Shown piece by piece: positions 8,964 through 47,076 of a stretch of 62,227 nucleotides of DNA. The position numbers and the translations under genes were made by a program. This DNA comes from a virus (Duplodnaviria; Caudoviricetes): positions 1 through 62,227 of the IMG/VR virus record IMGVR_UViG_3300038976_000011; one strand, 5' to 3'. Each line of letters starts with the position of its first letter. Position 1 is the stretch's first letter. The notes beneath the pieces were generated by a model, which ran no database searches, had not been told where the DNA came from, and worked only from the letters and a program-made list of their open reading frames with translations.

Positions 8964-9377
8964 ATGCCCAACTGGTTCGCTGGTGTCGCTGACCGCGCCT
9001 CCCGCACCGCGCTCCAAACCATCGCCGGCTACCTGGCGGTAGCTCACGGATTCACCGAGGTCCACTGGTTACCGGCTCTGTCGGCGGCTGGGTTCGCGGT
9101 GCTGCTGTCGCTGCTCACGTCGCTGGTCGGGTCCCCGTCGTTCGGTGAGTCGTGGGGGTTCCAGGTCGCTGAGCGTGCGGTGAAGACGTTCGGTCAGTCG
9201 CTGCTCGCCGGGATCGGTGCGGCGACGCTGTTCGCTGATGTGGATTGGCGGACCGCGTTGAACGCTGCGGCGTTGGCGGCTGTCGCGTCGGCGGTGACGA
9301 GTGTGATGACCACCCGTGTTGGGGCTGGTCTGAGCCGCGGTCAGGTGGATCTGTCGGTGCCCCCGAACCGGGCCTGA
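8964..9377 (+). CDS. Holin with tandem r1t-type domains
   Basis: Two copies of (D/E)RAxxTxxQ...V(H/D)WxxALxAA...SxxTS; directly after the endolysin. Confidence 0.8.
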   Translation: MPNWFAGVADRASRTALQTIAGYLAVAHGFTEVHWLPALSAAGFAVLLSLLTSLVGSPSFGESWGFQVAERAVKTFGQSLLAGIGAATLFADVDWRTALNAAALAAVASAVTSVMTTRVGAGLSRGQVDLSVPPNRA

Positions 9378-9425
9378 CTGTTCTTTCTCCAGCTGCCGGT
9401 CGGGGCTTCACCCTCCCTGTCCGGT

Positions 9426-9495
9426 GACAAGGCCCCCGCAACCTGGATCGTCTCGTCCCCTCGGGCGATCCGTGGTTGCGGGGGCCTCCTTTGTC
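9426..9495. terminator. Long stem-loop between convergent lysis and accessory transcripts (probable bidirectional terminator)
   Basis: GGCCCCCGCAACC...GGTTGCGGGGGCC 13-bp stem, extended by inner GGATCG/CGATCC and outer GACAA/TTGTC pairs. Confidence 0.7.
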
Positions 9496-9507
9496 ATGCC
9501 CGCCACT

Positions 9508-9738
9508 TCACTTGCCGCGAGCGGCCCAGTAGCCGGCTTCCTGTCGCAACTGCTCCAGCGTGGACTTCAACGTCGCCACCGGCGGCAGGTTCGGCGGCGG
9601 GGTTCCGATGCCGCCGTCCGCGCACAGCACTCCATCACGGAAGTACTCCACATCCCACTGCGTCTCGTTCCGCTGTACGGCGCGCGCCGTGAACTTGTAC
9701 GGATCGCTGTCGTCTTCAAGAGTCAAGATCAAGGTCAT
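9508..9738 (-). CDS. Hypothetical protein
   Basis: ATGA-coupled to the recombinase stop. Confidence 0.6.
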   Translation of the reverse strand: MTLILTLEDDSDPYKFTARAVQRNETQWDVEYFRDGVLCADGGIGTPPPNLPPVATLKSTLEQLRQEAGYWAARGK

Positions 9739-10889
9739 GTTGCAACCCCTGCGTGGTAGATGCCGGAGACCACCCGAGCCGCGGACCGCTCCACCTCACC
9801 CGCATGCAGGTAGGTCTGGGTGGTCGACAGCGACGAGTGGCCGAGGTCTTGCTGGATCTGCGACACCGTCACCCCCGCCTGCTCAGCGGTGACCGCGTAG
9901 GCGTGCCTCAGTTGGTGGGGGTGGATGCTGTCGGCGATGGGGGCCAGGATGCGGGCGGCGTCCTGAACCTCTGGGCGGGGATCGTCGGGTCGGGCGTTGC
10001 GGGCGATGGTCCGCAGCATCCGGGACACTTGGTTAGCGTGGCACCTGCGACCGTGTTCTGTGGTGAACAGCGGCTGCGCCATACCGCCAGCGCTGACGTC
10101 GCCGATCCGTGCCACCGTTCCGCTCGTGAGCCGGGATACGCGGGTCTCCAGGTACGCCTCAACGAGCGCGACATCCGGTGCCGGGAGCAGCGCCCACCGT
10201 TCCTTCCCGCCTTTGCCGTGGAGCCGGAGCAGGGCGTGCCCGTCTGGCTTGGGCCGGTAGTCCCCGACGTCGAGGGCAACAAGCTCGGCGACACGGCATC
10301 CCGTCGCGGCGAGCACGGCGAGCATGGCCAGGTTCCGTTCCCGATGCCGCCTTGACAGGCGGGCGGCGAGGTAGAGGGCACGGACCTGGGCGGCGGCCGG
10401 CGCGATCGTGGTCGACGGATCGTTGCCGGCCAGTCCCATGGTGCGCCGGTTCACCATCTCCCCAGGGTCACAGGTCACGATGGCTTCGACGCGGAGGTAG
10501 CGGTAGAAGGCGCACAGCGCCGACCACCGTCTCTGCCGGGTCTTCTTCGGGGCGTCCTGCAGTACGTGTGCGTACGCTTCCGCCTGATCCCGCCGTAGCG
10601 GCCCGGCAGGGTTTATGCCGTGGTCGAGCGCCCACGGGATCCACGCCCCAGGATCGGCCGGTCTCGGGTTGATGGGCCCGCCGGGTAGCCGCCCGCCGTG
10701 GTCGATGTCGGTGCGCATCTCGCGGGACAAGCCGATGTCGCGGGCGTAGTCGTTCCGTGTGCTTGCCCCGGTGTAGCCGTGGAGCCAGCGCACTGCGTAC
10801 CCCTCAGCGCGGCGACGCAGCAACTCCCGTTGGTCGGCGACTCGGTCCAGCTCGACAGCGGAGACCGGGACCAGGGCGGAGCCAGTCAC
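9735..10889 (-). CDS. Tyrosine recombinase (XerC/D-like)
   Basis: Catalytic set TGCR, GKGGKER, HQLRH, LGH, TTQTY; SAM-like N-terminal domain; no obvious arm-binding domain. Confidence 0.92.
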   Translation of the reverse strand: MTGSALVPVSAVELDRVADQRELLRRRAEGYAVRWLHGYTGASTRNDYARDIGLSREMRTDIDHGGRLPGGPINPRPADPGAWIPWALDHGINPAGPLRRDQAEAYAHVLQDAPKKTRQRRWSALCAFYRYLRVEAIVTCDPGEMVNRRTMGLAGNDPSTTIAPAAAQVRALYLAARLSRRHRERNLAMLAVLAATGCRVAELVALDVGDYRPKPDGHALLRLHGKGGKERWALLPAPDVALVEAYLETRVSRLTSGTVARIGDVSAGGMAQPLFTTEHGRRCHANQVSRMLRTIARNARPDDPRPEVQDAARILAPIADSIHPHQLRHAYAVTAEQAGVTVSQIQQDLGHSSLSTTQTYLHAGEVERSAARVVSGIYHAGVAT

Positions 10890-11338
10890 CGGGCCCTCCA
10901 CTCCTGCCCCGGAGGCGGGTGCTCAGCCCACGAGTCTCCAGCGACCCACCGGTTCGTGGACGCCTCGACACCGACCCGCCACATGTAGACGTAGGGCCTC
11001 TCCGTCCAGGGCGCGAGCGACCAGCACCTCCGGACGTCCAGCACGATGGGATCGGGTGGCATCTCCGGCACCGTGTCGGGCTCGGTGACGAGCCGCCACA
11101 GTGGCTTCCCGGGCGCGGGCAGGAGTACCCGGCATTCGTCCCGCGCGATCATGTCCCGCACGAACGGTGCTTGCCGCTCGAACGACGGATGCGCGGTGTT
11201 GGGAGCAGGTGGCCACGAGTGGTCTTGTGAGGCGCTGAACATCTGCTCCAGATGGACGTGGTGCTCGGCGTCCGCTACCGCCTTCAGTCGCGCGAGCGCT
11301 TCGTCCAGCCGACGCATCTCATCGTCCGGGTTCACCAT
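10886..11338 (-). CDS. Hypothetical protein
   Basis: Translationally coupled within the leftward operon. Confidence 0.55.
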   Translation of the reverse strand: MVNPDDEMRRLDEALARLKAVADAEHHVHLEQMFSASQDHSWPPAPNTAHPSFERQAPFVRDMIARDECRVLLPAPGKPLWRLVTEPDTVPEMPPDPIVLDVRRCWSLAPWTERPYVYMWRVGVEASTNRWVAGDSWAEHPPPGQEWRAR

Positions 11339-11664
11339 GAGTGCATCTCCGCCTCGTCCATGTGTTTCCGCAGCCAGTAGAGGTCCTCGTGGCACAGGTC
11401 CAGAAAGCGTGGCCGCCCCGGAGTGGAGGCAACGATCGCGTACTGCGCCTGCTTGCCGCAGCGCAGGCACGCATGCGCCTCGTCCTGGCTACGGCGGTTG
11501 ATCGCCTCTACCCACTCGTCTGGATACTCCGGGGCCGGGTCCAGTAACGTCGGGTTGGCCTTGATGTGGTGCAGGAACGCCTCGCCGTCGTTGATCTCTC
11601 GCGGCCCGTACGTGGCCTCCATCGCGGCCTTCAGTTCCGGGTCCGGCTTCCACGGTTCGGTCAC
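11332..11664 (-). CDS. Hypothetical protein with CxxC motif
   Basis: Coupled ORF; CLRCG...LCH. Confidence 0.55.
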   Translation of the reverse strand: MTEPWKPDPELKAAMEATYGPREINDGEAFLHHIKANPTLLDPAPEYPDEWVEAINRRSQDEAHACLRCGKQAQYAIVASTPGRPRFLDLCHEDLYWLRKHMDEAEMHSW

Positions 11665-11667
11665 TGT

Positions 11668-11994
11668 TCAGTCCTCCGGGTCTTCACGGAGGCCCAGCTG
11701 GCGTCGCGCGCCTTCCGGGTCGGCTCGAATTGCGTCCGCCGCGATCCGCATGCCAGCTGCGTCGAGCGCGTGGTACAGACCGTGCGCGGCGGTGATGGTC
11801 TCCGGCTGGTCGGGCACATCGAGCGCGGTGAGCGTGTAGCCGTTCGGGTGCGCATCGACAGCGTCCGAGGCGTAGACCGCTATCAGTCGCCACGCGGTGC
11901 CGTCCGGGGCGGTTGTCTCGTAGATGCCCTGGACTATGTCGATCGGCGTCCACTGCGGCAACGGGCCGGTTCGGTTAGCTAGGGACCCACTCAC
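11668..11994 (-). CDS. Hypothetical protein
   Basis: GTGA-coupled to the DUF262 gene. Confidence 0.55.
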   Translation of the reverse strand: MSGSLANRTGPLPQWTPIDIVQGIYETTAPDGTAWRLIAVYASDAVDAHPNGYTLTALDVPDQPETITAAHGLYHALDAAGMRIAADAIRADPEGARRQLGLREDPED

Positions 11995-12554
11995 AACGAC
12001 ACCCCCGGCACGTAGGACTGCGCTCGCTTCAGGTCCTCGGCGGTCTGCGCGGTGCCCGCCGAGTTGATCAGCCCGTAGACCTCCGCCTCTTCGGCGAGGC
12101 TGCCGAGCATGGCCTCGGCGACCGGGATGATGAACCGGTTGTCCATGTAGCGGCGTCCGATGTCGGACAGGTCGTGGCACTGAACCAACCGCCCCGCGCC
12201 ATCAGCGACCATCCGGTCTTCTAGCCAGACAGCCGGGATCGCGAGGTGCCCGGACCACCACATGTGCATCGTGGTCAACCGCTGCTTCCCGTCGATGCAC
12301 GCGTACCAGACCTCGCCGGGGTCGCCCTCGTTCCGCGCCCAAGCGATGTTGCTGCCGCGCCGGTTGAGCACGATCGCCGCGACCGGCACACCGAGCAGCA
12401 GGGACCTGACGAGGTTGACGCGCTGCTCCACCGTCCACACGTCGCCTCGCTGGTAGGGCGGGTCCAGCAGCATGCCGCCGTCGTCGATGTGGTGGACGAG
12501 GTCCTTCATGCTGCGCGCGGTGGCGTTCATGTTGCGGTGGACGAGTGGTGCCAT
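11991..12554 (-). CDS. Stand-alone DUF262 (ParB/Srx-like, GmrSD N-terminal-type) protein
   Basis: PPYQRGDVW and IDGKQRLTT motifs, ending YGLINSAG; RBS GAGAGGGG. Confidence 0.85.
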   Translation of the reverse strand: MAPLVHRNMNATARSMKDLVHHIDDGGMLLDPPYQRGDVWTVEQRVNLVRSLLLGVPVAAIVLNRRGSNIAWARNEGDPGEVWYACIDGKQRLTTMHMWWSGHLAIPAVWLEDRMVADGAGRLVQCHDLSDIGRRYMDNRFIIPVAEAMLGSLAEEAEVYGLINSAGTAQTAEDLKRAQSYVPGVSL

Positions 12555-12594
12555 GTCCTGTTCCCCTCTCAATGGGTGCTCCACCACCCTATCA

Positions 12595-12630
12595 CGAGTG
12601 TGTGGATAATAAGAGTTATCCACACACTCG
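12595..12630. promoter_or_regulatory. 15-bp perfect inverted repeat containing two DnaA boxes
   Basis: CGAGTGTGTGGATAA-TAAGAG-TTATCCACACACTCG; TTATCCACA on both strands. Confidence 0.7.
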
Positions 12631-12639
12631 ACCAGCGGC

Positions 12640-12876
12640 CTACTCCTCTTCCTCGGCAGCGGCCTCCAGTCGTTCCAGGTAGTCCAGAACCATCAGCCCC
12701 GGCAGCGAAGGCCCGGGTACGTTCGGCCACACCCGCCCCAGCAGGGTCAGCGTCCGATCAAGGTCGGTGCCGACCAGCATCGGCTCGCCGTAGTCGCCCC
12801 ACATGCCGTCCACGGCCTGCTCGTGCATGTCGGCGACCTCGGCGCGCACATCGCGGATGACCTTCTTCGTGCTCAT
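12640..12876 (-). CDS. Hypothetical protein
   Basis: RBS AGAGAAAGGG before ATG. Confidence 0.55.
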   Translation of the reverse strand: MSTKKVIRDVRAEVADMHEQAVDGMWGDYGEPMLVGTDLDRTLTLLGRVWPNVPGPSLPGLMVLDYLERLEAAAEEEE

Positions 12877-12912
12877 GCCTGTTCCCTTTCTCTTCGTTGG
12901 AGTGTCCCTCAC

Positions 12913-13093
12913 GGGTTAGACCCAGAGTTAGATCCGGACATCGGGGTTAGGTTCCTAACCGGCGGGTTAACTGGGCCAGAATGTGGCCGTGACCTGCAAG
13001 AAGTTAGGTGAGTTAGGTCGATTCACCGGCCCAACTCACCCGCCAAACCAGGGCTGAAACAGGGGTTTTGACCTAACCCCAGCGACCTAACTC
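12913..13093. repeat. Array of about ten 8-bp G(G/A)GTTAG(G/A) repeats; putative clt (TraB recognition locus)
   Basis: Forward copies at 12913, 12925, 12944, 12964 (variant), 13001 and 13010; reverse copies at 12954, 13030 (variant), 13072 and 13086 (overlaps the traB stop). Confidence 0.72.
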
Positions 13094-15294
13094 TCGACAC
13101 TGTTCCGCACCCTCAGCGCCTCCCGGACGACCTCCGGCTTCACCGGCCACCGGTTCCCCGTCGACGGCACCTTCGCACCCTCAGCGGTCAACTGAGCCGC
13201 CAACATCTCGCCGGTCAACCGCCCCAAACCGTAGGCAGGATGCTCCGGGAACGCCCGCGCCAACAGCGGCGCGACCTTCGCGGCCGGCATCGGCACATCC
13301 CCGAGCACCTCCGCCACATCCGCCAGCAAGTCCCGGATCCCGACCCGCGCCGCCTCGATCACCCGCTGATGCCCGGACCGCAGCTGCATCGCCCGCTTCG
13401 TCACCCGACGCGCATCGGACTGCGGCACGTAGAAGCAACGCAGCATCCCGGGCGGGTTGGTGAACCCGCGGGCTGCGCAGGTCCCGGCGTCGTTCAGCTC
13501 GTCGTCGATCGCCGGCACCAGGTTCGCCGCGGTGATCCCCCGCTTGTGGAAGCCGGTACCGATCGCGGCGTCGTTGCCGATCTGGTCGCCGATCGGGAAA
13601 CACGCTCTGTTCGACATGACCCGCACCACCCCGGACGGCACCGCGTCCCCAGTCGGATCCGGGGTCAAGAAGATCAGGGTGGTGGCGTACTTGCGGGCCG
13701 TCGTGATCAGCTGCTTCACGATGGTCTCCGCGTCCTTGCCGTGATCGGACATGAACAAGTTCTGGCACTCGTCGAACACCATCACCCGCGGCCGCAGGCG
13801 GGGTTCCCGCTCCGCGTATGCGCGGCAAACGAACTTCTCCGGCTCGCGACCTGCGGCTTCGTCGATGGCCATCTGCTCCCGCAGCAGCTCACCCATCTCC
13901 GACAGGTCCCGGAACCGGTCCCGCAACAGTTGGATCGCGGCCTCCACCGTCGCGGTCTCCGCACCCGTGTGCAACGAACGCAACGCTGGCCGCATCGGCT
14001 CGTAGTCGCCGTTCTCCGCCATGACCACAACATCCACGTCCACCAGCGGATCCAGGATCGCGCCGAGCACCAGCGTGACCGCCATGCTCGACTTGCCGCT
14101 CCCCATGACGCCGGCCATGAAGTAGTTCTTCTGGGAGAGCGGACTGGTGACCACCTTCCCGCGCAGGGTCATGGCGACGGGGATGCCCTTGAAGTAGTCG
14201 CAGGTGGCGTGGTCCAGGTTCTTCAGCACCGGCCACGGCCCCACCGGTTTGGTCAGCACACCGGGGTCAGCGATCCACCCGTCGAGCACCCCGGCCTCGG
14301 GTTCGGTGGGCCACACCTCGATCGGGTACCGCTTCAAGTTGTGGGCGAACAGGTCACGCTTCTTGACGAACTCGAGGACCGGGGCGCGGGGTGGCAGGTC
14401 GATTTGGAAGTGGGTGCCGCCCTCGAAGTAGCGTGGCGGGATCTTGTAGCGGACCTTCCAGCCAGCCTTCACAGCGCGACCGAAGTCGGGAACGGTGTCG
14501 CAGAGCGCGGCGGTGATGGTGTCCTCGGTGAGCACGCTGGTCATCATGTCCCCGACACCGGTCTCCGGCGCCATCCAGCGGCCCGGGACCGCGTTCTTCT
14601 TCCCGACACACCACACCCCGCACACCAGCACCACCAGGCCGACCCGCCAGCCGATGGACCAGGCGACGCTTACGGCGTGCGCGGTCCACGCGATCCCCGC
14701 GTACATGCCCAGCATGGGCACCAGCATGTTGGCGACACTGCCGTTGATCCACAAAGCGAACCCGAGGAACAGCAGCAGCACGTGCAGCGCGAGGACGCTG
14801 ATCCCGAACGCCTTCGCCGCCCGCAGCGGCAGCTCGAGGAAGTCCATGTGCCGCTTGTGGCGGCTGTCGCGCATCTTCTCGCCGCGGTCATGCCACTCAC
14901 CGAGGTGGTCCCAGTCGCCGGCCGCTTCCGCTACCCGCATCAGCCGCTCGGGCCTGGCGTTTGTTTTGGCGTCCCACAGTCGGGCGGTGAGGATGCGGGT
15001 ACCAGCCACCATGTAGGTGCCCTGCCGGACCACGAACTTCGCGGCGGCGATGGTGCGCTTGGACTGGCGGACGGTGGCGACCACCGTGGCGCCAGTCTGC
15101 ACCACCCTGGCGACCCGGGTGGTGGGCGGCGGGTCGTCGACGATCTCCGCGTCGTACACTGGGCCGACATGCTCGACGTCGCTGGCGTCCATCTCCGCCA
15201 ACTCGCCGCCAGCCTGGCGGACGCGGGTGGGGAACTGGAGCAGCTCACCGCCAGCGTCCACGGTCTCGTGGTCGTAGCCCCCTGTGTCGGTCAC
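13087..15294 (-). CDS. traB: FtsK/SpoIIIE-family conjugal DNA translocase (TraB-like)
   Basis: N-terminal TM helices; Walker A GVMGSGKS; Walker B VMVFDECQ; ARKYAT; DQIGNDAAIG; C-terminal wHTH-like DLLADVAEVLG segment. Confidence 0.85.
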   Translation of the reverse strand: MTDTGGYDHETVDAGGELLQFPTRVRQAGGELAEMDASDVEHVGPVYDAEIVDDPPPTTRVARVVQTGATVVATVRQSKRTIAAAKFVVRQGTYMVAGTRILTARLWDAKTNARPERLMRVAEAAGDWDHLGEWHDRGEKMRDSRHKRHMDFLELPLRAAKAFGISVLALHVLLLFLGFALWINGSVANMLVPMLGMYAGIAWTAHAVSVAWSIGWRVGLVVLVCGVWCVGKKNAVPGRWMAPETGVGDMMTSVLTEDTITAALCDTVPDFGRAVKAGWKVRYKIPPRYFEGGTHFQIDLPPRAPVLEFVKKRDLFAHNLKRYPIEVWPTEPEAGVLDGWIADPGVLTKPVGPWPVLKNLDHATCDYFKGIPVAMTLRGKVVTSPLSQKNYFMAGVMGSGKSSMAVTLVLGAILDPLVDVDVVVMAENGDYEPMRPALRSLHTGAETATVEAAIQLLRDRFRDLSEMGELLREQMAIDEAAGREPEKFVCRAYAEREPRLRPRVMVFDECQNLFMSDHGKDAETIVKQLITTARKYATTLIFLTPDPTGDAVPSGVVRVMSNRACFPIGDQIGNDAAIGTGFHKRGITAANLVPAIDDELNDAGTCAARGFTNPPGMLRCFYVPQSDARRVTKRAMQLRSGHQRVIEAARVGIRDLLADVAEVLGDVPMPAAKVAPLLARAFPEHPAYGLGRLTGEMLAAQLTAEGAKVPSTGNRWPVKPEVVREALRVRNSVES

Positions 15295-16001
15295 GCTTCT
15301 GCACCACCCTGGCGGTCGACGTGCACCAAGTACGCCAGGATCGACGCCAGCGCCAACACCGCGACCGGCACCAGCGCCACCGCTGTCACCACCTGCCACG
15401 GCGCCCGGGTGTGTCCGTACGCCGTCAACAGGTGGTAGGCGACCTGCGCGGCGCCACCAACCACCAGGCTGGCGAACGCCGACGCGCAGGCATAGACGCG
15501 GACCGACTTACGGCTGGTGACGCGGGTCAACCAGATCCGCAGCGCATAGGTGCCGTACGCCTCCACACTGATCGGTAGGACGATCGCGGAGTTGATGGTG
15601 AGGCTGTCCCAGATCCCGGGCAGGGGGCGGACTGGTCCGTAGCCGGACATCTCACCGAGGCCCACCCAGCCGGACCAGACGGAGAACCCGGCGGCGACAC
15701 CCATCAGGATCAGCGCCCAGCGTTGACGGCGGACCCGTGACCACCACTCGGCTAGGCGGGAACGCTGGCTAGGTGCCAGGGCGGCGGGGTCTGGTGTGTC
15801 GCTGGTGCCGGCTGGTGTCGGGCTGGCGTCCACAGTCGCCATGGCCTGCCGCACCTGGTGCTCCGTCACCTGCGGGTCCACCCGCTCCTTCGCCAACTTC
15901 ACCAGGGTGGTGCGGCCTGGCGGCTTCTCGCCTGCCTCGGCGGCGCGGGTGCGCTCGTCAACGATCAGGCGCTCAAGTACTGCGGCTCCGTTGGTGCTCA
16001 C
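15291..16001 (-). CDS. Multi-TM membrane protein, Spd-like (plasmid spread) candidate
   Basis: N-terminal HTH-like segment (PPGRTTLVK); four TM helices, LPISVEAYG motif; coupled directly to traB. Confidence 0.6.
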   Translation of the reverse strand: MSTNGAAVLERLIVDERTRAAEAGEKPPGRTTLVKLAKERVDPQVTEHQVRQAMATVDASPTPAGTSDTPDPAALAPSQRSRLAEWWSRVRRQRWALILMGVAAGFSVWSGWVGLGEMSGYGPVRPLPGIWDSLTINSAIVLPISVEAYGTYALRIWLTRVTSRKSVRVYACASAFASLVVGGAAQVAYHLLTAYGHTRAPWQVVTAVALVPVAVLALASILAYLVHVDRQGGAEA

Positions 16002-16465
16002 CTGGCGCCACCCGCCACCATCACGGTGACCACCGCACCAACCGGGATCTGGACACCCTTGTGCACGGCCTGGTCCATCAGCATGCGGCCGTTCACCCCG
16101 TGGTCGGCGAGGTCATGGAACGCCCGCTTGCCGGTCACGTCGGCCAGCCGCCGCAGCAGCCGGCCGTCGTCGATGACCGCGTGCAACAGCCCCTCGACCA
16201 CGGTCCCGGCCAGCAGCGCCCTACCGGACACTCGCACACCGGTCGCCCGGTAGGCGATCCACTTCATGGCGGCCTGAGTCGCGGCGTAGGTGATGGCGTG
16301 GCGGGCGAGGGCGAACCGTCCCGCCCGGGTTTGGTGCTGCTTCGCTTGGGCGTCGCAGTCCAGTTGGATGAGGTAGTCGCCTACCTCGTGGCCAGCGATA
16401 CCCGCCAGCCAGGTCACAGCTAGGACAGTGGCGCGGGAATCTGTAAGGTCCACTTCAGCGGACAT
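15998..16465 (-). CDS. DUF3307-family membrane protein
   Basis: AGHEVGDYLIQ...HAVIDD...DQAVH motifs. Confidence 0.8.
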   Translation of the reverse strand: MSAEVDLTDSRATVLAVTWLAGIAGHEVGDYLIQLDCDAQAKQHQTRAGRFALARHAITYAATQAAMKWIAYRATGVRVSGRALLAGTVVEGLLHAVIDDGRLLRRLADVTGKRAFHDLADHGVNGRMLMDQAVHKGVQIPVGAVVTVMVAGGAR

Positions 16466-16492
16466 GGGAGGTCGGTCTCCTGTGTGCGTTAG

Positions 16493-16529
16493 GGGCCGCA
16501 CCCCGGCTGGAGGCCTGGGGGTGCGGCCC
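16493..16529. other. 12-bp inverted repeat (stem-loop) upstream of the DUF3307 gene
   Basis: GGGCCGCACCCC...GGGGTGCGGCCC. Confidence 0.55.
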
Positions 16530-16548
16530 TGTCCTATCGGTCTGGGTA

Positions 16549-16785
16549 CTAATCGGTCCATCTCTGCACAAGGCTGGCGATGTCTTCGCCGTACCTGGTC
16601 AAACAGCGGTGGCAGTGCGGCGGCACCAGGGTGGTGTCTTCCGGGCGCACGATCTTGTCGGGGGGCGCGGTGTGCAGACACAGCGCCTCCAAGTAGGTGT
16701 CGGTGGCGTGGGTGAAGGCATGGACCCGGAAGTCGTAGTCGGAGATCAGCCACTGCGCCTGCTGGTACGACTGGTCTGCCATCAC
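16549..16785 (-). CDS. Small Cys/His zinc-finger-like protein
   Basis: VHAF...ALCLH...CHRC pattern; such ORFs often lie divergent from Xre/DUF397 loci. Confidence 0.6.
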   Translation of the reverse strand: MMADQSYQQAQWLISDYDFRVHAFTHATDTYLEALCLHTAPPDKIVRPEDTTLVPPHCHRCLTRYGEDIASLVQRWTD

Positions 16786-17108
16786 ACGCTCCGGGGGTGT
16801 AGCCCGACGGGCGCAGCGGCGGGTGCACGGAAGGCTGCGCCCGTCGGGGCTGGGGCCGGCAGACGCGAGGACGAGCGGGGGTCACCCGCGCCTGCCGGGG
16901 CTGGGGTAGACGCAGACCGGGGGAGCGTGTGGGGGAGTCGCTCGACCCCGGCCTGCCTTCGGGTGCCCGCTGGGGGTCGGGTCACCCGAGTTGTCGTGGA
17001 GCCGTCTGGCGTGCGGCTCCACGGCTGGTTACGGCTGTGGAGGTGTAGGTCGCCGAGTACGGCGGCGGAGAGCATGATGACGTAGAGGTCGAACACGAGG
17101 CCGGTCAT
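16782..17108 (-). CDS. Hypothetical protein (N-terminal TM, Pro-rich)
   Basis: First ORF after the leftward promoter; coupled to the next gene. Confidence 0.4.
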   Translation of the reverse strand: MTGLVFDLYVIMLSAAVLGDLHLHSRNQPWSRTPDGSTTTRVTRPPAGTRRQAGVERLPHTLPRSASTPAPAGAGDPRSSSRLPAPAPTGAAFRAPAAAPVGLHPRSV

Positions 17109-17167
17109 GTCTCGTCTGCCATGGGGCTGCGCTCCAGCGCCTGGGTGTCACACGCATCTGCACGTGC

Positions 17168-17212
17168 TGTACCGGTACACTCTAGTCTGACTGTCCCGGG
17201 ACAGACTTGCAA
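17168..17212 (-). promoter_or_regulatory. Leftward sigma70-type promoter with palindromic operators
   Basis: Minus strand TTGCAA-N17-CAGACT; perfect palindrome CTGTCCCGGGACAG (17191-17204) in the spacer and TGTACCGGTACA (17168-17179) downstream. Confidence 0.6.
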
Positions 17213-17270
17213 CCCCACCCCTGGCGTCATCCCCCAACATCCCCCACCACACCCCCGATAGGGTCAATAC

Positions 17271-18086
17271 ATGACGACATCGTGGCGAGTCCGAGCACTG
17301 AAGAAGGTGCTTCGGGACGCGCTGAAGGAGGCCCGTGTCTCTGGCAGGGAGGCGGCGCGGCGCCTCAACGTACCGACCATGCGCGTGAGCCGATGGTTAG
17401 ATGACACCGAGGCCGCGCCCTCAACCGAGGACGTCGCCAGACTCATCACCGCGGTCGGCGTTACCGGGGATGACTTCGACCGGATCCTCCGGGTCGCGAA
17501 CGTCGGCGAGGACTGGTTCACCGGTGTCACCGCGTCAACGTTCATCGCGTGCGAGCGTGACGCGTTCCGCATCACCGAGTGCGCGCCGCTGGTCATCCCC
17601 GGGCTGCTGCAGACCCCGGAGTACACGCGGCACCTGAACTACGGCGGCCAGTCAGACGCGGCGACCGAGCAGGCCGTGGCTGTTCGGCGGGAGCGGGCCG
17701 CGGTGCTGGCCGGTGAGCATCCGACTGAGCTGCTGGCGCTGATCGGCATACCCGCGCTGGAGGGGATGATCGGCGGCCCGAAGGTGATGGCTGAGCAGCT
17801 GGCGCATCTGGCTTCGATGGCGAGGCGGAGCAACGTCACGGTGCAGGCCATTGACCTAGGCGGGGGATGGACGCCCGCGCATGTGACTTCGTTCTTCGTC
17901 TACGAGTACGCCGAGTTGCCTACCACGGTGTACGTGGAGCAGTTATCGGGTGGAACCTTCCACGTTGACTCACCCCACGTGGATAATTACGAGGCTGCGG
18001 TGGACTGGCTCCGCAGCGTGGCGATGAGCCCCGCCGACACGCTGGAGCTCATCGCCAGCATCATCCCGGAGAAGGAGGATATGTGA
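17271..18086 (+). CDS. Xre-family HTH regulator with DUF5753 domain (Scr1/WhiJ-like)
   Basis: N-terminal HTH; IPGLLQTPEY, IGGPKVMAEQL and VYVEQ motifs. Confidence 0.9.
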   Translation: MTTSWRVRALKKVLRDALKEARVSGREAARRLNVPTMRVSRWLDDTEAAPSTEDVARLITAVGVTGDDFDRILRVANVGEDWFTGVTASTFIACERDAFRITECAPLVIPGLLQTPEYTRHLNYGGQSDAATEQAVAVRRERAAVLAGEHPTELLALIGIPALEGMIGGPKVMAEQLAHLASMARRSNVTVQAIDLGGGWTPAHVTSFFVYEYAELPTTVYVEQLSGGTFHVDSPHVDNYEAAVDWLRSVAMSPADTLELIASIIPEKEDM

Positions 18087-18265
18087 CGAAGATACACGAG
18101 GTGACCTGGCGGAAGTCGACGTTCTCGGCGCAGGACACCGAGGCGTGTGTGGAGCTCGGGAACCGTGGCTGGGTGCGTGATTCCAAGAACCCTGCTGGCC
18201 CGGTGCTGGCGTTGCCGTGGTCGTCTTTGCTGGCGGCGGTGAAGACGGACCGTATCGCCCGCTGA
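18083..18265 (+). CDS. DUF397 protein
   Basis: WRKSTFS...CVEL...VRDSKNPAGPVL. Confidence 0.92.
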   Translation: MTKIHEVTWRKSTFSAQDTEACVELGNRGWVRDSKNPAGPVLALPWSSLLAAVKTDRIAR

Positions 18266-18325
18266 TCCGGCAGGCATGAGTTGGCCCCGGCGCTCCGATG
18301 GGGGAGGCCGGGGCCAACCTCTGTC

Positions 18326-18526
18326 TCAGGCCGGACCGTCGATCACGGACGCTGTGCGTTCGAAGTCCCGCAGCGACTGGCAGGGCCACGGCTCCAAGCA
18401 CGTCTCGCACTCCGAGCCGTCCCCGCTGTCGCGCGGCTGGTGGAGCCGGTACATCACTCGGGTGAGGCTGGCTACCGCCGCGCTCACATCCACCTTGATC
18501 GTGAACCGCAGGCCGTCTGTGCTCAT
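18326..18526 (-). CDS. Small Cys-rich hypothetical protein
   Basis: LHQP...CETCLEPWPC. Confidence 0.55.
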   Translation of the reverse strand: MSTDGLRFTIKVDVSAAVASLTRVMYRLHQPRDSGDGSECETCLEPWPCQSLRDFERTASVIDGPA

Positions 18527-18759
18527 GGGGTATCCACCTCGACTCGTATCGGTGAAGGCGTGGCGGCGACACATGCTGGACAGAAGTCGCCTTGCCCGTC
18601 AGCGCCCGGCTTCCATCCCTCCGGCAGCACGCCATCGGGCATGGCCTCAACGTTCCGGCAGCCGTCGCACTGTACAGCGGCCACCGTCACCTGGATGCGG
18701 CGCCAGAGACGCAGGCCAAGCCGGCGAGCCGTGCCCTGTTTGAGCGGCGTGTCAGCCAT
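18523..18759 (-). CDS. Zinc-ribbon hypothetical protein
   Basis: CDGC...GW...FCPAC. Confidence 0.55.
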   Translation of the reverse strand: MADTPLKQGTARRLGLRLWRRIQVTVAAVQCDGCRNVEAMPDGVLPEGWKPGADGQGDFCPACVAATPSPIRVEVDTP

Positions 18760-19093
18760 GGGTATCCACCCCCGAACACAAGACCGCCTTGGCGAGGTCC
18801 AGGGCCGGCGCGAACCGGTCCGCCAACGCCGCCTTGAACTGTACCGCGTTGAGCGTCATGCCCGAGACGGTGACGTCGTGAGCGGCTGCCCGCAGAAGCG
18901 CTTCGAGCCCTGGGGCTGCGGCTGGGGACAGAGCAGCGATCCACCGGCGCGCGTGCTCTGGGCACTGTCGGTCCAGGCTCCAGTACAACCACGACTCGTG
19001 GCGCTTCTCCCAGTCGCCCTCACCTGCGTGGTAGTGGGCTGCTAGGTCTCGGATGCGGTCAGCCGCCGCAACCAACGTCTCGACCGGGGTCAC
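18752..19093 (-). CDS. Hypothetical protein
   Basis: Coupled ORF; AADRIR...WIAALSP. Confidence 0.55.
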   Translation of the reverse strand: MTPVETLVAAADRIRDLAAHYHAGEGDWEKRHESWLYWSLDRQCPEHARRWIAALSPAAAPGLEALLRAAAHDVTVSGMTLNAVQFKAALADRFAPALDLAKAVLCSGVDTHG

Positions 19094-19476
19094 GGCCCGG
19101 CCTCGATCGCGGCGACAGGGAGCCACGCCAGGCCGGGGCTACCCGCATACGGGGACTTGTCGGTCGGAGTCAGGTACTCGCTGTCGGACGGCAACCACAC
19201 GTGGTACCCGTCGTCGCGTCTCTCGATCCGCATGGTGTTCGTCCCTCCCTGGAAGTCGATCGGTGCTTTCGTCGGCAGCCACGCGGCACCGTCCAGGTCG
19301 ACCCACACCACCCAGGGCAGCGTGTACTTGGACTCGCCGACCCGCATCGACTCGATCGTCCGCGTGTACTTCGGCGGGTCAGAGGTGGGTGGCGTCGTGT
19401 CCGGTGTCGGCGTTGAGCAGCCGCCGATCGCGGCGGCCAGCGTCGCGGCCAGCATGATGAGTCGTAGGGTCTTCAT
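19090..19476 (-). CDS. Putative lipoprotein
   Basis: Signal peptide MKTLRLIMLAATLAAAIGG-C followed by a Pro/Thr linker. Confidence 0.7.
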   Translation of the reverse strand: MKTLRLIMLAATLAAAIGGCSTPTPDTTPPTSDPPKYTRTIESMRVGESKYTLPWVVWVDLDGAAWLPTKAPIDFQGGTNTMRIERRDDGYHVWLPSDSEYLTPTDKSPYAGSPGLAWLPVAAIEAGP

Positions 19477-20504
19477 GGCAGTACCACCGTTCCGTTCCAG
19501 AGCTGCGAGGTCACGCCACCAGCCTGCTCCATCCCCACCACAACCCGCACCTGCTTCGGGTCGGCGACCGAAGGCACCATCGACGCGTACGTCATCATCC
19601 CGCCCGCCGGCGCCGCCAACACCACACCGCCCGGCACCCACGTCACCCCGTTGTCCACGCTCGTGGCCATCACCGCGGACCCGGTCGACGCCTCCCGATA
19701 CACCGTGAGCAGGGTGCCCCCCGACGCGATCACCGTTGGTCGGCCGGTCGCGTTGTCCAGGATCTTGCGGGGCTGTTCCGGCCACGACACCCCCGAATCC
19801 GGGGACGAGCGGATACCGATCGCGTTGTCACCCCACCTGAACAGCATGTGCGTCCAGGACCCGTTGACCACCAGGTACGGCTCCGCTGTCGACATACCCG
19901 CACCCAGGAAGTTGACGATACGGTTCTGCGTCCAGGACCAGGCGCCGTCGCTTGACCACCCCATCCACGCCGTCCAGACAGCTTCACCTGCCTGTTTGCC
20001 GTAGAACGCGACCGCCATGCGCCCGTCCGGGAGCTGTGTCACCGGCCCGGAGATCGCCGCCTGCTGGAGGGTGTCGATCCGGCGGGAGAACTCCCACCAC
20101 TCCCGCTGCACCGCGACACCCATCGCCGGGTTGGTGCTGTTCGCACCGAACCACGTCATGTAGTTGATGCCGCCGATCGATGACGTAGAGGGGTCGCGGT
20201 ACAGGTTGACCTTCACTGTCTGGGTGTTGCCCCAGGTGACACCGTCGTCGTAGGACTCGGCGGTCATCACCCGCCCGTCGGTGGCGAGGTGGGTGGAGCC
20301 TTGCCGCCACGTCAGCAGCAGCGTCCCGCCCGGCTCCCTCGCCAGCGACGGGAACGCTGAGTGGGCGGCTTGGCCTACGGTCATGGGTTGCATGGGTGTC
20401 TCCAGACGCGGTCTGGCCGCGGTTCGGGCCACCACGGTTGCGGGGGCGGCGGCGGTGCACGCGGCGACAGCAGCGGCGAGCACCGCGCAAAGTAACCGTC
20501 TCAC
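19473..20504 (-). CDS. BNR/Asp-box (sialidase-fold) putative lipoprotein
   Basis: Asp boxes SYDDGVTW, SSDGAWSW, SPDSGVSW, SVDNGVTW; signal peptide with AVAA-C. Confidence 0.8.
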   Translation of the reverse strand: MRRLLCAVLAAAVAACTAAAPATVVARTAARPRLETPMQPMTVGQAAHSAFPSLAREPGGTLLLTWRQGSTHLATDGRVMTAESYDDGVTWGNTQTVKVNLYRDPSTSSIGGINYMTWFGANSTNPAMGVAVQREWWEFSRRIDTLQQAAISGPVTQLPDGRMAVAFYGKQAGEAVWTAWMGWSSDGAWSWTQNRIVNFLGAGMSTAEPYLVVNGSWTHMLFRWGDNAIGIRSSPDSGVSWPEQPRKILDNATGRPTVIASGGTLLTVYREASTGSAVMATSVDNGVTWVPGGVVLAAPAGGMMTYASMVPSVADPKQVRVVVGMEQAGGVTSQLWNGTVVLP

Positions 20505-20893
20505 GGGGTCGGCTCCTCTACACCCAGACCACGAGCCAACACCCGCAGCGTCTCTTCCATGGCCTTCACGTACCCGTTGTTGCCCGAGTACTCCGGGTGG
20601 CAGGACTGCGTGAACAGCGCGCCGGTGTACAGGCTGATGATGTCTCGGTGTGCCCGACACAACCGAAGGGCCGGGGTCGGGTGCTGCTCCATCATGTGAC
20701 GGTCAGCTTCCCGGTTGGTGGACTCTTCCGCGCCTTCGGTTGCCCAACTGTCACACAGGTGACACTCGGCTCTCACCTCTTCGCTGTCGCCGGTCGTCGT
20801 CCAACCGGTGTAGCCGTCGATGAGTACGTTCAGTTCCTCACGCTCGACCTGTGCGATCTTGGCTAGGAGAGCAGACACCACGGTGTCAGACAT
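20501..20893 (-). CDS. DUF6221-like protein
   Basis: Shares the HPxxxLRxCxAxRxI and LRVLA pattern with the 43546 and 44145 genes. Confidence 0.5.
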   Translation of the reverse strand: MSDTVVSALLAKIAQVEREELNVLIDGYTGWTTTGDSEEVRAECHLCDSWATEGAEESTNREADRHMMEQHPTPALRLCRAHRDIISLYTGALFTQSCHPEYSGNNGYVKAMEETLRVLARGLGVEEPTP

Positions 20894-21290
20894 GACGGGC
20901 CTCCTGCGGCTTCCGTTGGATCACTGGACGGTCCACATGCAGGTGCTCCACCACCGTCGACCAGCCCCCCGCCGAAGCGCGCCGCGCCACCTCGGCGGCG
21001 ATCACCACAGACCGGTGCCGGCCCCCGACACACCCCACCGCCACCGACACCGGACCGGTCCCCGTCGCGAGAAGAGCCGACGCCACCTTCCACAACGCCG
21101 CGATATACCTGTCCACGCCGTCGGTGCCGAGAACCTTGTCCACCACCGCCTGGTCACGCCCCGTCATCCCACGCAACTGCGGGTCGATGTGCGGGTCACG
21201 GAACCGCATCCGCACATCAACCACCACATCAGCGGTCGGCAGCAGCTCACCATGCCCGTACCTGAACGAGTACACCAACAGGTCAGGCAT
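20886..21290 (-). CDS. RapZ C-terminal-domain-like protein (stand-alone)
   Basis: SFRYGHG...DVR..FRDP...LRGMTG...VAVGCVGGRHRSV. Confidence 0.85.
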   Translation of the reverse strand: MPDLLVYSFRYGHGELLPTADVVVDVRMRFRDPHIDPQLRGMTGRDQAVVDKVLGTDGVDRYIAALWKVASALLATGTGPVSVAVGCVGGRHRSVVIAAEVARRASAGGWSTVVEHLHVDRPVIQRKPQEARHV

Positions 21291-21669
21291 GACGTCCCTC
21301 CGTCCGCTTCTGCTGCGCGGTCCACGGCATGACCAAGCCGTCGTTCTCGCGGCGAGGCACGATGTGCCAGTGCAGATGAAACTCTGTCTGGTCAGCCCAC
21401 GGACCACAGTTCGTGATCAAATGGAAGTCGCTGATGTAGGTGAGGGTGGCCAGCTCAGCGGCCCGCGCCGCCACCATCCCCGTCACCGCGTAATCCTCGG
21501 ACGCATCCGCCACATGCCGGATCGGCACCACCAACAGGTGACCCTCGGTGCAGTCCCGACACCCCCACTCATCGACGAAGGGCAGGAACGCGACCGCGTC
21601 CCCCCACCGCCACACCACCTGCGCGGGCTCGGTACCTGCGACGATCCCACAGAACGTGCAGTCATTCAT
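21283..21669 (-). CDS. HIT-family nucleotide hydrolase
   Basis: CTFC, GHLLVVP and HLHWH triad. Confidence 0.92.
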   Translation of the reverse strand: MNDCTFCGIVAGTEPAQVVWRWGDAVAFLPFVDEWGCRDCTEGHLLVVPIRHVADASEDYAVTGMVAARAAELATLTYISDFHLITNCGPWADQTEFHLHWHIVPRRENDGLVMPWTAQQKRTEGRHA

Positions 21670-21916
21670 GGCGGGCACCCCCACCAGCAACCCCAGATGA
21701 CTGGTTGGCCTGTTGGCGCGCGTCGGCGACGGCCGCAAGCATGGCCAGCGCGACGGCCTCAGCCTCACCGTCGCGCCAGACCTGTCCGTTCAGCCGGATG
21801 TAGGGCCAGCCAGCTTTGTCCACCTCAGCGACGATCTCGACGCCAGCGTTCACGGCGGCGTCGAGCCACCGCCGGGCTTCGGCCTCCACCGTGTCCTGCT
21901 CGTTGCTGATGTTCAC
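21662..21916 (-). CDS. Hypothetical protein
   Basis: Coupled ORF. Confidence 0.5.
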   Translation of the reverse strand: MNISNEQDTVEAEARRWLDAAVNAGVEIVAEVDKAGWPYIRLNGQVWRDGEAEAVALAMLAAVADARQQANQSSGVAGGGARHE

Positions 21917-22257
21917 CGGTTCGCTCCCTGCTCTGTCGGTGCCCATATCCAATCCCCACCCACTTCGAGCGCCCGATACACACCCGGCTCCACCGGCGGC
22001 CTATCCAAGCCTTCGACATACTCGGGCAGCGTGCAGCCGTGGGTGGCGGTGTCGACCCGCTCCCGCAGCGGGTGAGTCACGGTGAACGAGGTCTCCGTGA
22101 ACGTCACCAGGTGTTCGGTTTCCTGGTCCATGAGGATCTGGGACACCGCGAACGGTGACGGGCAGGTCAGCTTTTTGCAGGCGATGTGCCCGTCGCACAT
22201 GAGGGTGAGGGTGGTGCCGCAGCCCATCGGGCAGAAGCCTGCGACGTCGACGGTCAC
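21913..22257 (-). CDS. Cys-rich hypothetical protein
   Basis: GFCPMGCG...HPLRER...PGVYRA. Confidence 0.6.
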   Translation of the reverse strand: MTVDVAGFCPMGCGTTLTLMCDGHIACKKLTCPSPFAVSQILMDQETEHLVTFTETSFTVTHPLRERVDTATHGCTLPEYVEGLDRPPVEPGVYRALEVGGDWIWAPTEQGANR

Positions 22258-22582
22258 GGGGTCTCCTCCCCACGCAACACAGAAGCCCGAGCCCGGCCGC
22301 TCACGGCCGCCACTTGGCCTCCCGTCTCCCGCACCGGCCGCACGTCACGATCGCCCCGTACCGCAGGCCCGTCACAGTCCTGACCCGATGCCCGGTCAGG
22401 GAGCAGCGCAGACGCCGCCACAGCGTTCTCACCGCCGGTCGCCCCTCTCGGATGGTTGCACTGGTCGCAGCACCGCACGTCCTCCTCGCCCTCGTCAGCG
22501 AACCCGCAGTCGGCGCGCCTCATGCGGCAACTGCGACAGTTCGTGCCGTCCCGCACCGCAGGCAGTTCGATGTAGCCGTACA

Positions 22583-22828
22583 TCACTGACCCCCAGACTC
22601 GTCGATCACCGTGAGCAGGTCGGCGACCAGGTTCGGCAACTCCTGTCCGACGCGCAGACACTCCTTCGTCGCGAACGGCGACATCCCCGTGTAGTTGCCC
22701 GGGTCCACGACCGTGCCGACGAACGAGCCGCGCCCCGAGCCACCGTCACCTTCGGTCACTCGCGCGGTGAACCACTGGCCGCGTTCGTGCTCCCAGCGGA
22801 CCAGCTTCCCGATCATGTCGCCGTTCAT
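22583..22828 (-). CDS. Hypothetical protein
   Basis: ATGA-coupled ORF. Confidence 0.5.
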   Translation of the reverse strand: MNGDMIGKLVRWEHERGQWFTARVTEGDGGSGRGSFVGTVVDPGNYTGMSPFATKECLRVGQELPNLVADLLTVIDESGGQ

Positions 22829-23031
22829 CGGGACACCTGCTCATCACGGTCATCGACATCCGACGCGACGACCGCCCGCGGCTTCTCGCCGCTACCCGAA
22901 CAGTTCGAGGGCGGACACACGCCCGGCGCGCCGTGCGCCCGCACGGTGCCGTCCTTCTTCAGGTTGAACAGGCGCACGCACACGTGGCAGATGCCTCGCC
23001 CGTACGGTGCCGTGTTCGCGAAGTCGCTCAT
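22825..23031 (-). CDS. Small zinc-binding protein
   Basis: CHVC...DGTVRAH...CSGSG; coupled to padR. Confidence 0.55.
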   Translation of the reverse strand: MSDFANTAPYGRGICHVCVRLFNLKKDGTVRAHGAPGVCPPSNCSGSGEKPRAVVASDVDDRDEQVSR

Positions 23032-23324
23032 GGTCGCTTCCTCTCTGACAGCAGCTGCTGCACGTACCCCCGACGCTCTTCCCGCAGCCGATACACCCGC
23101 CGCGGTGGGGCACCGGCACCCGTCGTCGGCTCCCACTCGTCGTCCACGATCCGCAGCTCCCGAAGTCGTTCCAAGATGCGGTACACGGTGCCCCGGCCGT
23201 AGCCGGCGAGCCGGGCGATCTCGTATCCGTGGAGCTCCATGGATGCCTTGTTCAGCACCTCCAGCACGTCACACAGTTGCGGTGTGAGGGTGGGGCGTGG
23301 TGGGTCCTCGCTTGCTTCGGTCAT
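23028..23324 (-). CDS. PadR-family winged-helix regulator
   Basis: LHGYEIA...GTVYRILERL...W...PPRRVYRL. Confidence 0.88.
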   Translation of the reverse strand: MTEASEDPPRPTLTPQLCDVLEVLNKASMELHGYEIARLAGYGRGTVYRILERLRELRIVDDEWEPTTGAGAPPRRVYRLREERRGYVQQLLSERKRP

Positions 23325-23450
23325 GCCACAACCCTACCGCACCTAGATGCATTCACACATAGATGTGACCTGACTGTGACCCTGAGTCGGTGTGCCCACT
23401 GCCACGGCTTGCCCTCGTACAACACCCGACAGCGGTGATACCGTGCGCGC

Positions 23451-47038: not shown

Positions 47039-47076
47039 GGGGCGGCGGAGCTTCTGGTGGAGTGGAGGTCCGCACT

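Follow-up and report, generated by a model that had tools for sequence, protein, structure and literature searches.

A class-specific repeat array at a traB stop codon as a candidate clt-type TraB recognition site in a predicted temperate phage genome

The virus record IMGVR_UViG_3300038976_000011, a 62,227-nt stretch of DNA that was analysed at its full length and is called the window here, carries a dense array of short repeats at positions 12913..13093, between the stop codon of a traB-like gene on the minus strand and the next gene. The array comprises eight intact RGTTAG sites, two decayed copies and a central box. An earlier reading of this DNA, hereafter the original prediction, had described about ten copies of GRGTTAGR in both orientations and had proposed that they form a clt locus of a new specificity. 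It is known that clt regions contain repeats recognised by the cognate TraB (PMC4447253). The array has two of the features by which such loci are defined, namely an element-specific cluster of short (7-9 bp) repeats and a position at or reaching into the 3' end of a tra gene.

The clustering of the motif is pronounced. All six exact GRGTTAGR matches of the window lie inside 12913-13093, a number reached by one of 100 shuffled sequences (mean 1.64). Eight of the 19 copies of the GTTAG core fall within 12905-13095, with the remaining 11 scattered, and eight of the 13 copies of [AG]GTTAG[ACG] are in the array. At the rate found outside it, the Poisson probability of eight cores per 191 nt is ~4e-17, or ~1e-14 after correction for the number of intervals. 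A weight matrix trained only on 51 sites from eight other loci likewise placed seven of its nine matches of at least 10 bits, and six of its seven matches of at least 12 bits, in the array. The core itself is scarce in this DNA, whose G+C content is 67%: TTAG was seen 29 times on both strands against ~184 expected by base composition (about six times rarer), and GTTAG 19 times against ~62. The cluster at the traB stop, the count of about ten copies (eight intact and two decayed) and the rarity of TTAG were thus all correctly described in the original prediction, and the count across the record places the motif chiefly in the array, where it is far commoner than elsewhere.

Following the array outward from traB, the first copy is GAGTTAGG on the minus strand (13086..13093; CCTAACTC as listed), which overlaps the traB stop codon, CTA on the plus strand at 13087-13089 and TAG on the minus strand, just as had been predicted. 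A copy at or over the stop was also observed in the plasmid pCM32 (L001 in our numbering of related loci), in the related phage-like contigs L002 and L003, and in L052 and L057. It is followed by GGGTTAGG, an exact GRGTTAGR site (13072..13079, minus strand), and by a decayed copy, GAGTTGGG (13030..13037, minus strand; also listed as CCCAACTC), which has no GTTAG core and whose counterpart in L002 is an intact GAGTTAGG. Two direct copies spaced by 9 bp, GAGTTAGG (13010..13017) and AAGTTAGG (13001..13008), both on the plus strand, lead to the central box, TGACCTGC on the plus strand or GCAGGTCA in the traB sense, at 12990..12997 and 92 nt past the stop. Beyond the box is a plus-strand variant, GGGTTAAC (12964..12971), which has no GTTAG core, carries the core of another motif class (class E, see below) and is not kept in L002. 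Two further copies, CGGTTAGG (12954..12961, minus strand) and GGGTTAGG (12944..12951, plus strand), form an inverted pair GTTAG-N4-CTAAC. The plus-strand copy GAGTTAGA (12925..12932) lies 19 bp from the preceding one, and the outermost, GGGTTAGA (12913..12920, plus strand), 12 bp further on. Simple scans of 12500-13500 found neither a sigma-70-like promoter nor a terminator, and an Rfam scan of 12400-13600 gave a single chance-level match, far below the gathering score. The array strand folds better than shuffled sequences (z -3.1), which we attribute to the inverted layout of the repeats and not to an RNA.

The traB-like gene (13087..15399, minus strand) was taken as the longest open reading frame (ORF), and its true start is possibly further in. 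Its 770-residue product is divided by the sequence and by a structure model (pLDDT 73.8) into a disordered start, long hydrophobic helices, an FtsK-type motor and a small C-terminal domain. Long helices were modelled at residues 94-269, and inspection of the sequence places hydrophobic stretches at about 199-264. The Walker A motif GSGKS occupies residues 433-437 and the Walker B pair DE residues 543-544; G433, S434, G435, K436, D543 and E544 are invariant in a family alignment with 25 relatives. A profile of the family matched FtsK (2IUU) in the PDB with an E-value of 6.6e-6, and a Foldseek search with the model ranked FtsK motor domains highest, with 6T8O_A at E 2.4e-14 (TM 0.60 on the target), and the TcpA coupling protein next. 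In the Pfam scan, Zot was above the cut-off and FtsK_SpoIIIE, at 16 bits, was under its 24-bit cut-off, and an NCBIfam scan returned nothing for TraB or the neighbouring proteins. The best match in the plasmid collection was TraB of pCM32 from Saccharopolyspora endophytica (37% identity); weaker matches were Streptomyces plasmid TraBs, including that of pSVH1 (~23% identity, in the motor only). Relatives are numerous in the genomes of Pseudonocardiaceae, Streptosporangiaceae and Streptomyces. Sequence and model together point to an FtsK/TraB-type DNA translocase.

To survey the family, we collected 101 loci with TraB relatives, consisting of pCM32, 20 virus contigs and 80 genome contigs. Nine were dropped, four with no usable stop (L005, L039, L054 and L092) and five as too distant (L096 and L098-L101), and de novo 6-mer enrichment was performed on the 92 remaining relatives and the window (93 loci), comparing positions -20 to +263 around the traB stop with the rest of each locus. 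A locus-specific word repeated at least three times at the traB stop was found in 84 of the 93 loci, with at least eight motif classes, and nine loci gave no clear word. Class A, to which the window belongs, has the core GTTAG and the consensus GAGTTAGG(TC) and was found in 12 loci. The others are class B (AGGGAG, consensus AGGGAGGC, 51 loci), class C (CAGGGA, CAGGGAAGC, nine loci), class D (AATGAG, CGAATGAG, two loci), class E (GGTTAA, GGGTTAAG, four loci), class F (AGTGGA, GAGTGGAT, one locus), class G (GGGGAA, GGGGAAG, four loci) and class H (ACGGAG, ACGGAGGCC, one locus). The consensus words of all classes are about 8 bp long. Copies occur in both senses in every class, and the mixed orientation, with its fixed positions, is therefore a family trait, not a peculiarity of the array in the window. 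As a control, the same method was applied to pSVH1 and returned GACCCGGA, which we take to be the known recognition motif of pSVH1 TraB; five of the seven GACCCGGA copies lie within about 100 nt past the traB stop, four in one sense and one reversed. In some relatives the array is lost or degraded: L080 has coding-like sequence right after the stop, L056 has a broken C-terminus, and the repeats of L004, L010 and L085 are weak and drifted. These five may be decaying elements.

The members of class A include the window, L002 (TraB 97% identical), L003 (48%) and pCM32, as well as elements of Amycolatopsis taiwanensis, Nonomuraea, Thermocatellispora and Saccharopolyspora thermophila. The motif class is distinct from that of pSVH1. 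It is not unique to this record, since pCM32 and several integrated elements share it. We assembled a set of 59 class-A sites from nine loci, excluding the twin L002, L089 (a copy of L051) and the atypical L087 and L085. Although the sites were selected by GTTAG alone, the base preceding the core is A or G in all 59.

The order of the sites is also shared. In the traB sense, a class-A array has a copy that reaches or overlaps the stop and then a stretch rich in G+C; two to four direct copies follow at a spacing of about 9 bp, and after them come the box, the inverted pair GTTAG-N4-CTAAC, a copy 19 bp on and often another 12 bp beyond. The 9-bp direct pair of the window recurs in the other class-A loci. 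In 11 class-A arrays, drawn from different genera and from a plasmid, integrated elements and phage-like contigs, CTAAC-N14-CTAAC occurs exactly once per array, 117-154 nt past the stop, within the consensus GTTAg.AAcCTAACtCG.......cGA.CTAACtc. The central box, ttccGCAGGTCA, was found in all 12 class-A arrays and lies 91-96 nt past the stop in 10 of them. The TGACCTGC/GCAGGTCA box also occurs in classes D and E, where as in class A it lies about 90-96 nt past the stop; many class-B arrays have it reversed, and a TGACCTGC-like word follows the pSVH1 repeats (L102). Besides the window, the box was noted in L001-L003, L022, L023, L051, L052, L057, L084, L087, L089, L016, L026, L028, L060 and L086.

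Comparison of the window with its closest relative, L002, indicates that the sites are kept while the intervening bases drift. Over the distal 52 nt of the array, 20 of 20 core bases are kept, against 17 of 32 spacer bases. The homology between the two, 91.5% over traB and array, stops exactly at 12913, the outer edge of the array. We also noted that in the pCM32 record (NZ_KM260754) traB changes frame near its 3' end, at about 9040-9103: the annotated coding sequence ends at 9096, and the frame that encodes the C-terminus of the family (VPSTGNTWPV...) ends with TAG at 9101-9103. The cause is either an error of sequencing or a genuine frameshift.

The C-terminal domain of TraB comprises residues ~686-770 (13090..13344, minus strand). 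From the alignment, the columns that are most informative of the motif class and have a low spread within classes are residues 745, 746, 749 and 751. Alignment and models place them in the segment PSTGNRWP (residues 745-752; 13144-13167, minus strand), and residues 745-751 sit in a loop between a helix at 730-739 and the final helix. In the models (pLDDT of the domain, 78.5), this loop occupies the place of the wing in a winged helix. Its signature differs between the classes: VKVP[ST]TGN[RK][WFY]P in class A, YK[TS]..G in class B, [RS]KS[DG][GN][DQK][SI] (typically RKSDGDS) in class C, PSTDRK[FW] in class D and P.[ST]KNR[YH] in class E. The class of the array agrees with the loop signature in 81 of the 83 classed loci; pCM32 was excluded from this count because its record changes frame.

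We further constructed a motor-only tree from which the C-terminal 95 residues had been removed. On this tree class A requires eight changes, at least five of them forced by well-supported branches; L022 is nested among class-B proteins of Amycolatopsis, and the sister of L057 is a class-D protein. The scattered distribution of class A implies that array and C-terminal domain switch jointly and without the motor.

A search of host genomes added to this picture. In five genomes of hosts of related elements (~50 Mb in total), pairs of CTAACY within 2-14 bp were counted against a reversed control pattern and, traB loci apart, were about as rare as the control. Clusters of at least three overlapping pairs marked only the five known traB loci and a single other place, G008:C16, which adjoins another traB (40% identical, loop STGNKWP). 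This second traB, L106 (G008:C16:120000-128000), has its own class-A array, was found by the DNA motif alone and lies in the Nonomuraea genome that also contains L052, so that two elements of the same predicted specificity are present there. The chromosomal count suggested in the original prediction, which raised the possibility of clt-like sites on the host chromosome, was thus made on hosts of related elements and gave no sign of many such sites.

FtsK reads KOPS and SpoIIIE reads SRS; both are 8-bp words read by a small C-terminal domain, and both are spread over the chromosome with a strand bias that steers direction. TraB resembles these systems in its FtsK-type motor and small C-terminal domain, and the family also has purine-rich words (AGGGAGG, CAGGGAA and GGGGAAG). 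The sites of the window differ in being packed in one two-sense array. They are not dispersed with a strand bias, and we found no enrichment elsewhere in the record or in the five host genomes. We rejected chromosomal guide words of the KOPS/SRS type on these grounds.

The closest known counterparts are the clt loci of Streptomyces plasmids. In pSVH1, pJV1 and pWTY27, repeats that adjoin the 3' end of the tra gene or extend into it are bound by the cognate translocase (PMC4447253, PMC3583192), and the array of the window would act in the same manner. pSVH1 TraB reads repeated 8-bp motifs through helix alpha-3 of its C-terminal winged helix (PMC3583192). As in the window, the pSVH1 repeats form an 8-bp cluster straight after the stop of an FtsK-type traB, with one copy reversed and a TGACCTGC-like box nearby. 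The pSVH1 motif is unrelated to GAGTTAGG, however, and its TraB is similar only in the motor (~23% identity). The array in the window further differs from pSVH1 in being partly mirror-symmetric with fixed spacings, in the position of the class-telling loop after helix 3 and in its phage carrier. The clt of pWTY27 consists of 16 bp inside traA and the adjacent 159 bp; its repeats are both direct and inverted, and TraA binds it (PMC3583192). It likewise runs from the 3' end of the tra gene outward and is of similar length (175 bp, against 181 bp here), but its repeats are TGACACC and CCCGCCC, and binding and transfer are experimental there and predicted here. pCM32 shares with the window the motif class, the array layout after a 37%-identical TraB and the order DUF3307 gene, unknown genes, traB; it differs as an integrative plasmid of 14.6 kb that has no virion genes and whose array is followed by a primase-polymerase gene.

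According to a 2022 survey, TraB specificity has been shown only for pJV1, pSVH1 and pIJ101, and even pSAM2, the archetypal integrative element, lacks a described clt motif (PMC9513070). We found no description of a pCM32 clt in the open-access literature searched, which also yielded neither the motif of the window nor clt predictions in such elements; searches with the 8-mer gave only telomere papers. What is known, then, is that repeats at the 3' end of a tra gene are bound by the cognate translocase; what differs here is the motif, the fixed box-centred layout, the likely specificity loop and the phage carrier.

Taken together, these results make it probable that the array is a clt-type TraB recognition site with the specificity GAGTTAGG. 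The candidate clt of the original prediction is backed in this by the FtsK-type gene, the family-wide arrays at traB stops, the match between motif and loop, the status of traB as the sole constant neighbour (see below) and the pSVH1 control. Several observations weigh against this assignment. The C-terminal fold, a wHTH domain in the original prediction, is only weakly winged-helix-like in the model: the best Foldseek hit of the domain has an E-value of 0.55, with none at E <=0.001; the best of 48,161 chains compared with VIA-align 2 reaches Z 5.3, which is in the common range, even though most rows are winged-helix proteins; FtsK gamma is not among the structural matches shown; and neither the Pfam scan nor the profile comparison with the PDB gave a meaningful match for the domain. 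The class-telling residues fall in the loop after helix 3, compared with the published pSVH1 recognition in helix alpha-3. Two loci are off the diagonal, as L087 has a GGGTTAG array with a different loop and the CAGGGAG motif of L006 straddles two classes, and the loop signatures were written after the classes were seen. The motor tree is a quick FastTree with local supports only. The coding DNA of the C-terminal domain adjoins the array, the two lying within about 300 bp, so that a single recombination event would carry both, and linkage as well as function may account for their joint switching. The pattern used for the box is degenerate and has a background rate of 0.44 per 300 nt, and only its constant position therefore counts. 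Finally, two of the ten copies in the record are decayed.

An alternative is that the repeats are operators or sites of another protein, such as a Kor/TraR-type regulator, a spread protein or a host factor, which controls traB or the downstream gene, and that TraB is not their reader. The array indeed lies between two genes of the same strand and could regulate the 90-aa gene beyond it, and it has the conserved non-repeat box TGACCTGC in its middle. It is also conceivable that a companion gene is involved, since the 236-aa gene upstream of and overlapping traB (15291..16001, minus strand) has relatives adjoining traB in 14 of the 101 loci (tblastn, E 1e-5); this gene had no family match in the scans made and may be a partner in the transfer module. 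Next to it is a gene for a 295-aa membrane protein with a DUF3307-like C-terminal part (15998..16885, minus strand), with relatives in 10 of 101 loci and a DUF3307 gene upstream of traB in pCM32 too. On the other side of the array, neither the 90-aa gene nor the DUF262/GmrSD_N-like gene (11991-12623, minus strand; ParB/GmrSD_N superfamily, 300 bp downstream of the array) has relatives in any of the 101 loci. The gene past the array varies: pCM32 has a primase-polymerase gene there, L002 a small ORF and L003 a gene for a secreted-looking protein. traB, found in 98 of 101 loci, is the only constant neighbour of the array. This constancy, together with the agreement between motif class and TraB loop in all but two of the classed loci, the lack of a sigma-70-like promoter or terminator in the simple scans and the lack of a GntR-type regulator encoded near the array in the window, makes a reader other than TraB unlikely.

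The nature of the carrier bears on a second alternative. The original prediction had taken the replicon for a plasmid; the virion gene set and the terminal repeat instead show a circular temperate phage genome. The record ends in an exact 127-bp direct repeat (1-127 and 62101-62227), which means that the assembly closes into a circle of ~62.1 kb, and the tape-measure gene spans the end-to-end junction. PHROG and Pfam scans of the window identified a large terminase (47062-48675), a major head protein (51146-52444) and, between them, a 715-aa ORF (48943-51090) whose first 440 residues match portal families and whose remainder matches head-maturation protease families; this ORF looks like a portal-protease fusion. 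Further virion and lysis genes encode a head-tail adaptor, the tape measure, minor tail proteins and an endolysin, and the early genes encode RusA, a Sak4-like protein, a methyltransferase, WhiB, a replication initiator and a DnaC-like loader. By gene content and terminal repeat, the record is the complete circular genome of an actinophage-like temperate tailed phage, presumably of a filamentous soil bacterium. Its terminase shares no more than 37% identity with those of Streptomyces, Gordonia and Mycobacterium phages, and a search of the phage collection matched neither the DNA of 9000-24000 nor the TraB protein, with records of the same genome possibly excluded. Among five related virus records, the terminase was matched in two (L002 and L003) and the major capsid protein in none.

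The traB module sits between the lysis genes and the early genes. A tyrosine integrase gene (9735-10901, minus strand) and a serine integrase gene (23451-24935, plus strand) bracket a 13-kb accessory region, mainly on the minus strand, that contains it, and the traB part is readily read as a conjugation-type module within this region of the phage. The combination of the two integrase kinds suggests a captured integrative element or a composite origin. The region also contains an XRE helix-turn-helix (HTH)/DUF5753 gene followed by a DUF397 gene (17271-18265; the version in L002 is ~80% identical), an actinomycete pair of the WhiJ/BldB-like kind, and cargo-like minus-strand genes at 19473-22257 with BNR/sialidase-like, RapZ C-terminal-domain-like, HIT-family and DUF6085 products. 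Over the start of the DUF262/GmrSD_N-like gene there is a perfect A+T-rich palindrome, GTGTGGATAA-TAAGAG-TTATCCACAC (12600-12625), which is unusual at 67% G+C and could be an operator or a terminator.

From this setting it might be argued that the array is a clt by descent that now travels as inert cargo, the piece from integrase to traB having been captured by the phage from an integrative conjugative element. Its location in the accessory region beside a tyrosine integrase, while the phage has a serine integrase too, fits such an origin, as do the synteny with pCM32 (DUF3307 gene, unknown genes, traB, array), the decay of two of the ten copies and the lack of a conjugative-element-type replication gene after traB in the window. 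However, traB is a full-length open frame with intact Walker motifs, and the cores are kept against L002 where the spacers are not. L002 and L003 are phage-like contigs with terminase genes that also carry traB and a class-A array, which indicates that the module was retained by a phage lineage and is no isolated case. We consider it improbable, accordingly, that the pair of pump and site is inert. More improbable still is that the array is some other cis site, such as origin iterons, arm-type attP sites of the tyrosine integrase or a partition site: short two-sense repeats are typical of all three, the pCM32 array lies directly upstream of the primase-polymerase gene and a ParB/GmrSD_N superfamily gene follows here, but the integrase is 2 kb off with relatives in three of 101 loci, the DUF262 gene recurs in none, the replication gene past the pCM32 array has no equivalent at that place in the window, L002 or L003, and the array always adjoins the traB stop with a motif that follows the TraB C-terminus.

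For the clt-type recognition site, we propose the following mechanism. The 181-bp array would serve as the recognition and loading site of the TraB-like translocase encoded just upstream. The C-terminal domains of this presumably membrane-anchored and hexameric pump would read the 8-bp sites GAGTTAGG(TC). About eight sites are held in a fixed, partly mirror-symmetric layout, which from traB presents two sites at the stop, the direct pair 9 bp apart, then the TGACCTGC box and the inverted pair, and two outer sites at 19 and 12 bp. Such a layout could let several C-terminal domains bind jointly and thereby mark the DNA molecule as a substrate. The motor would then drive the excised phage genome, a double-stranded circle, into an adjacent hypha or through the septa of a mycelium. 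The original suggestion that the mixed orientation could load the translocase in both directions is neither supported nor contradicted by these data. TraB binding, the hexamer, loading, the direction of pumping and transfer of the phage genome are steps that we infer.

There are partial precedents for a phage with transfer functions. SpdB2-like proteins occur on some actinophages (PMC4447253), and the Streptomyces plasmid-phage pZL12 transfers by a tra gene (PMC3583192, PMC4487206). pZL12 is like the window in combining phage particle genes with transfer by a tra gene, and differs in being a 90-kb plasmid with ParAB; no similarity between its tra and the TraB of the window was found in the collections searched. 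We tentatively put forward a broader model, which is possible but which we hold with some doubt: a dual-mode phage that makes virions and also uses its own TraB to pump naked, excised, circular double-stranded DNA from hypha to hypha, together with a swappable code of 8-mer and C-terminal loop that decides which DNA each pump takes. The code would pair PSTGNRW with GAGTTAGG, PS[ST]KNRY with GGGTTAAG, PSTDRKF with CGAATGAG and YKTGG with AGGGAGG.

The comparison yields a predicted clt for a large TraB subfamily in which at least eight specificities share one layout and the loop foretells the DNA word, and it opens the substrate choice of TraB to direct swap experiments. An apparently intact pump and its site are kept in a complete circular phage genome and in two related phage-like contigs. 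If the pair is active, lysogeny could pass through the mycelium or from strain to strain with no need of particles, receptors or lysis. Prophage and conjugative element would then be harder to tell apart, which would bear on estimates of gene flow in antibiotic-producing actinomycetes.

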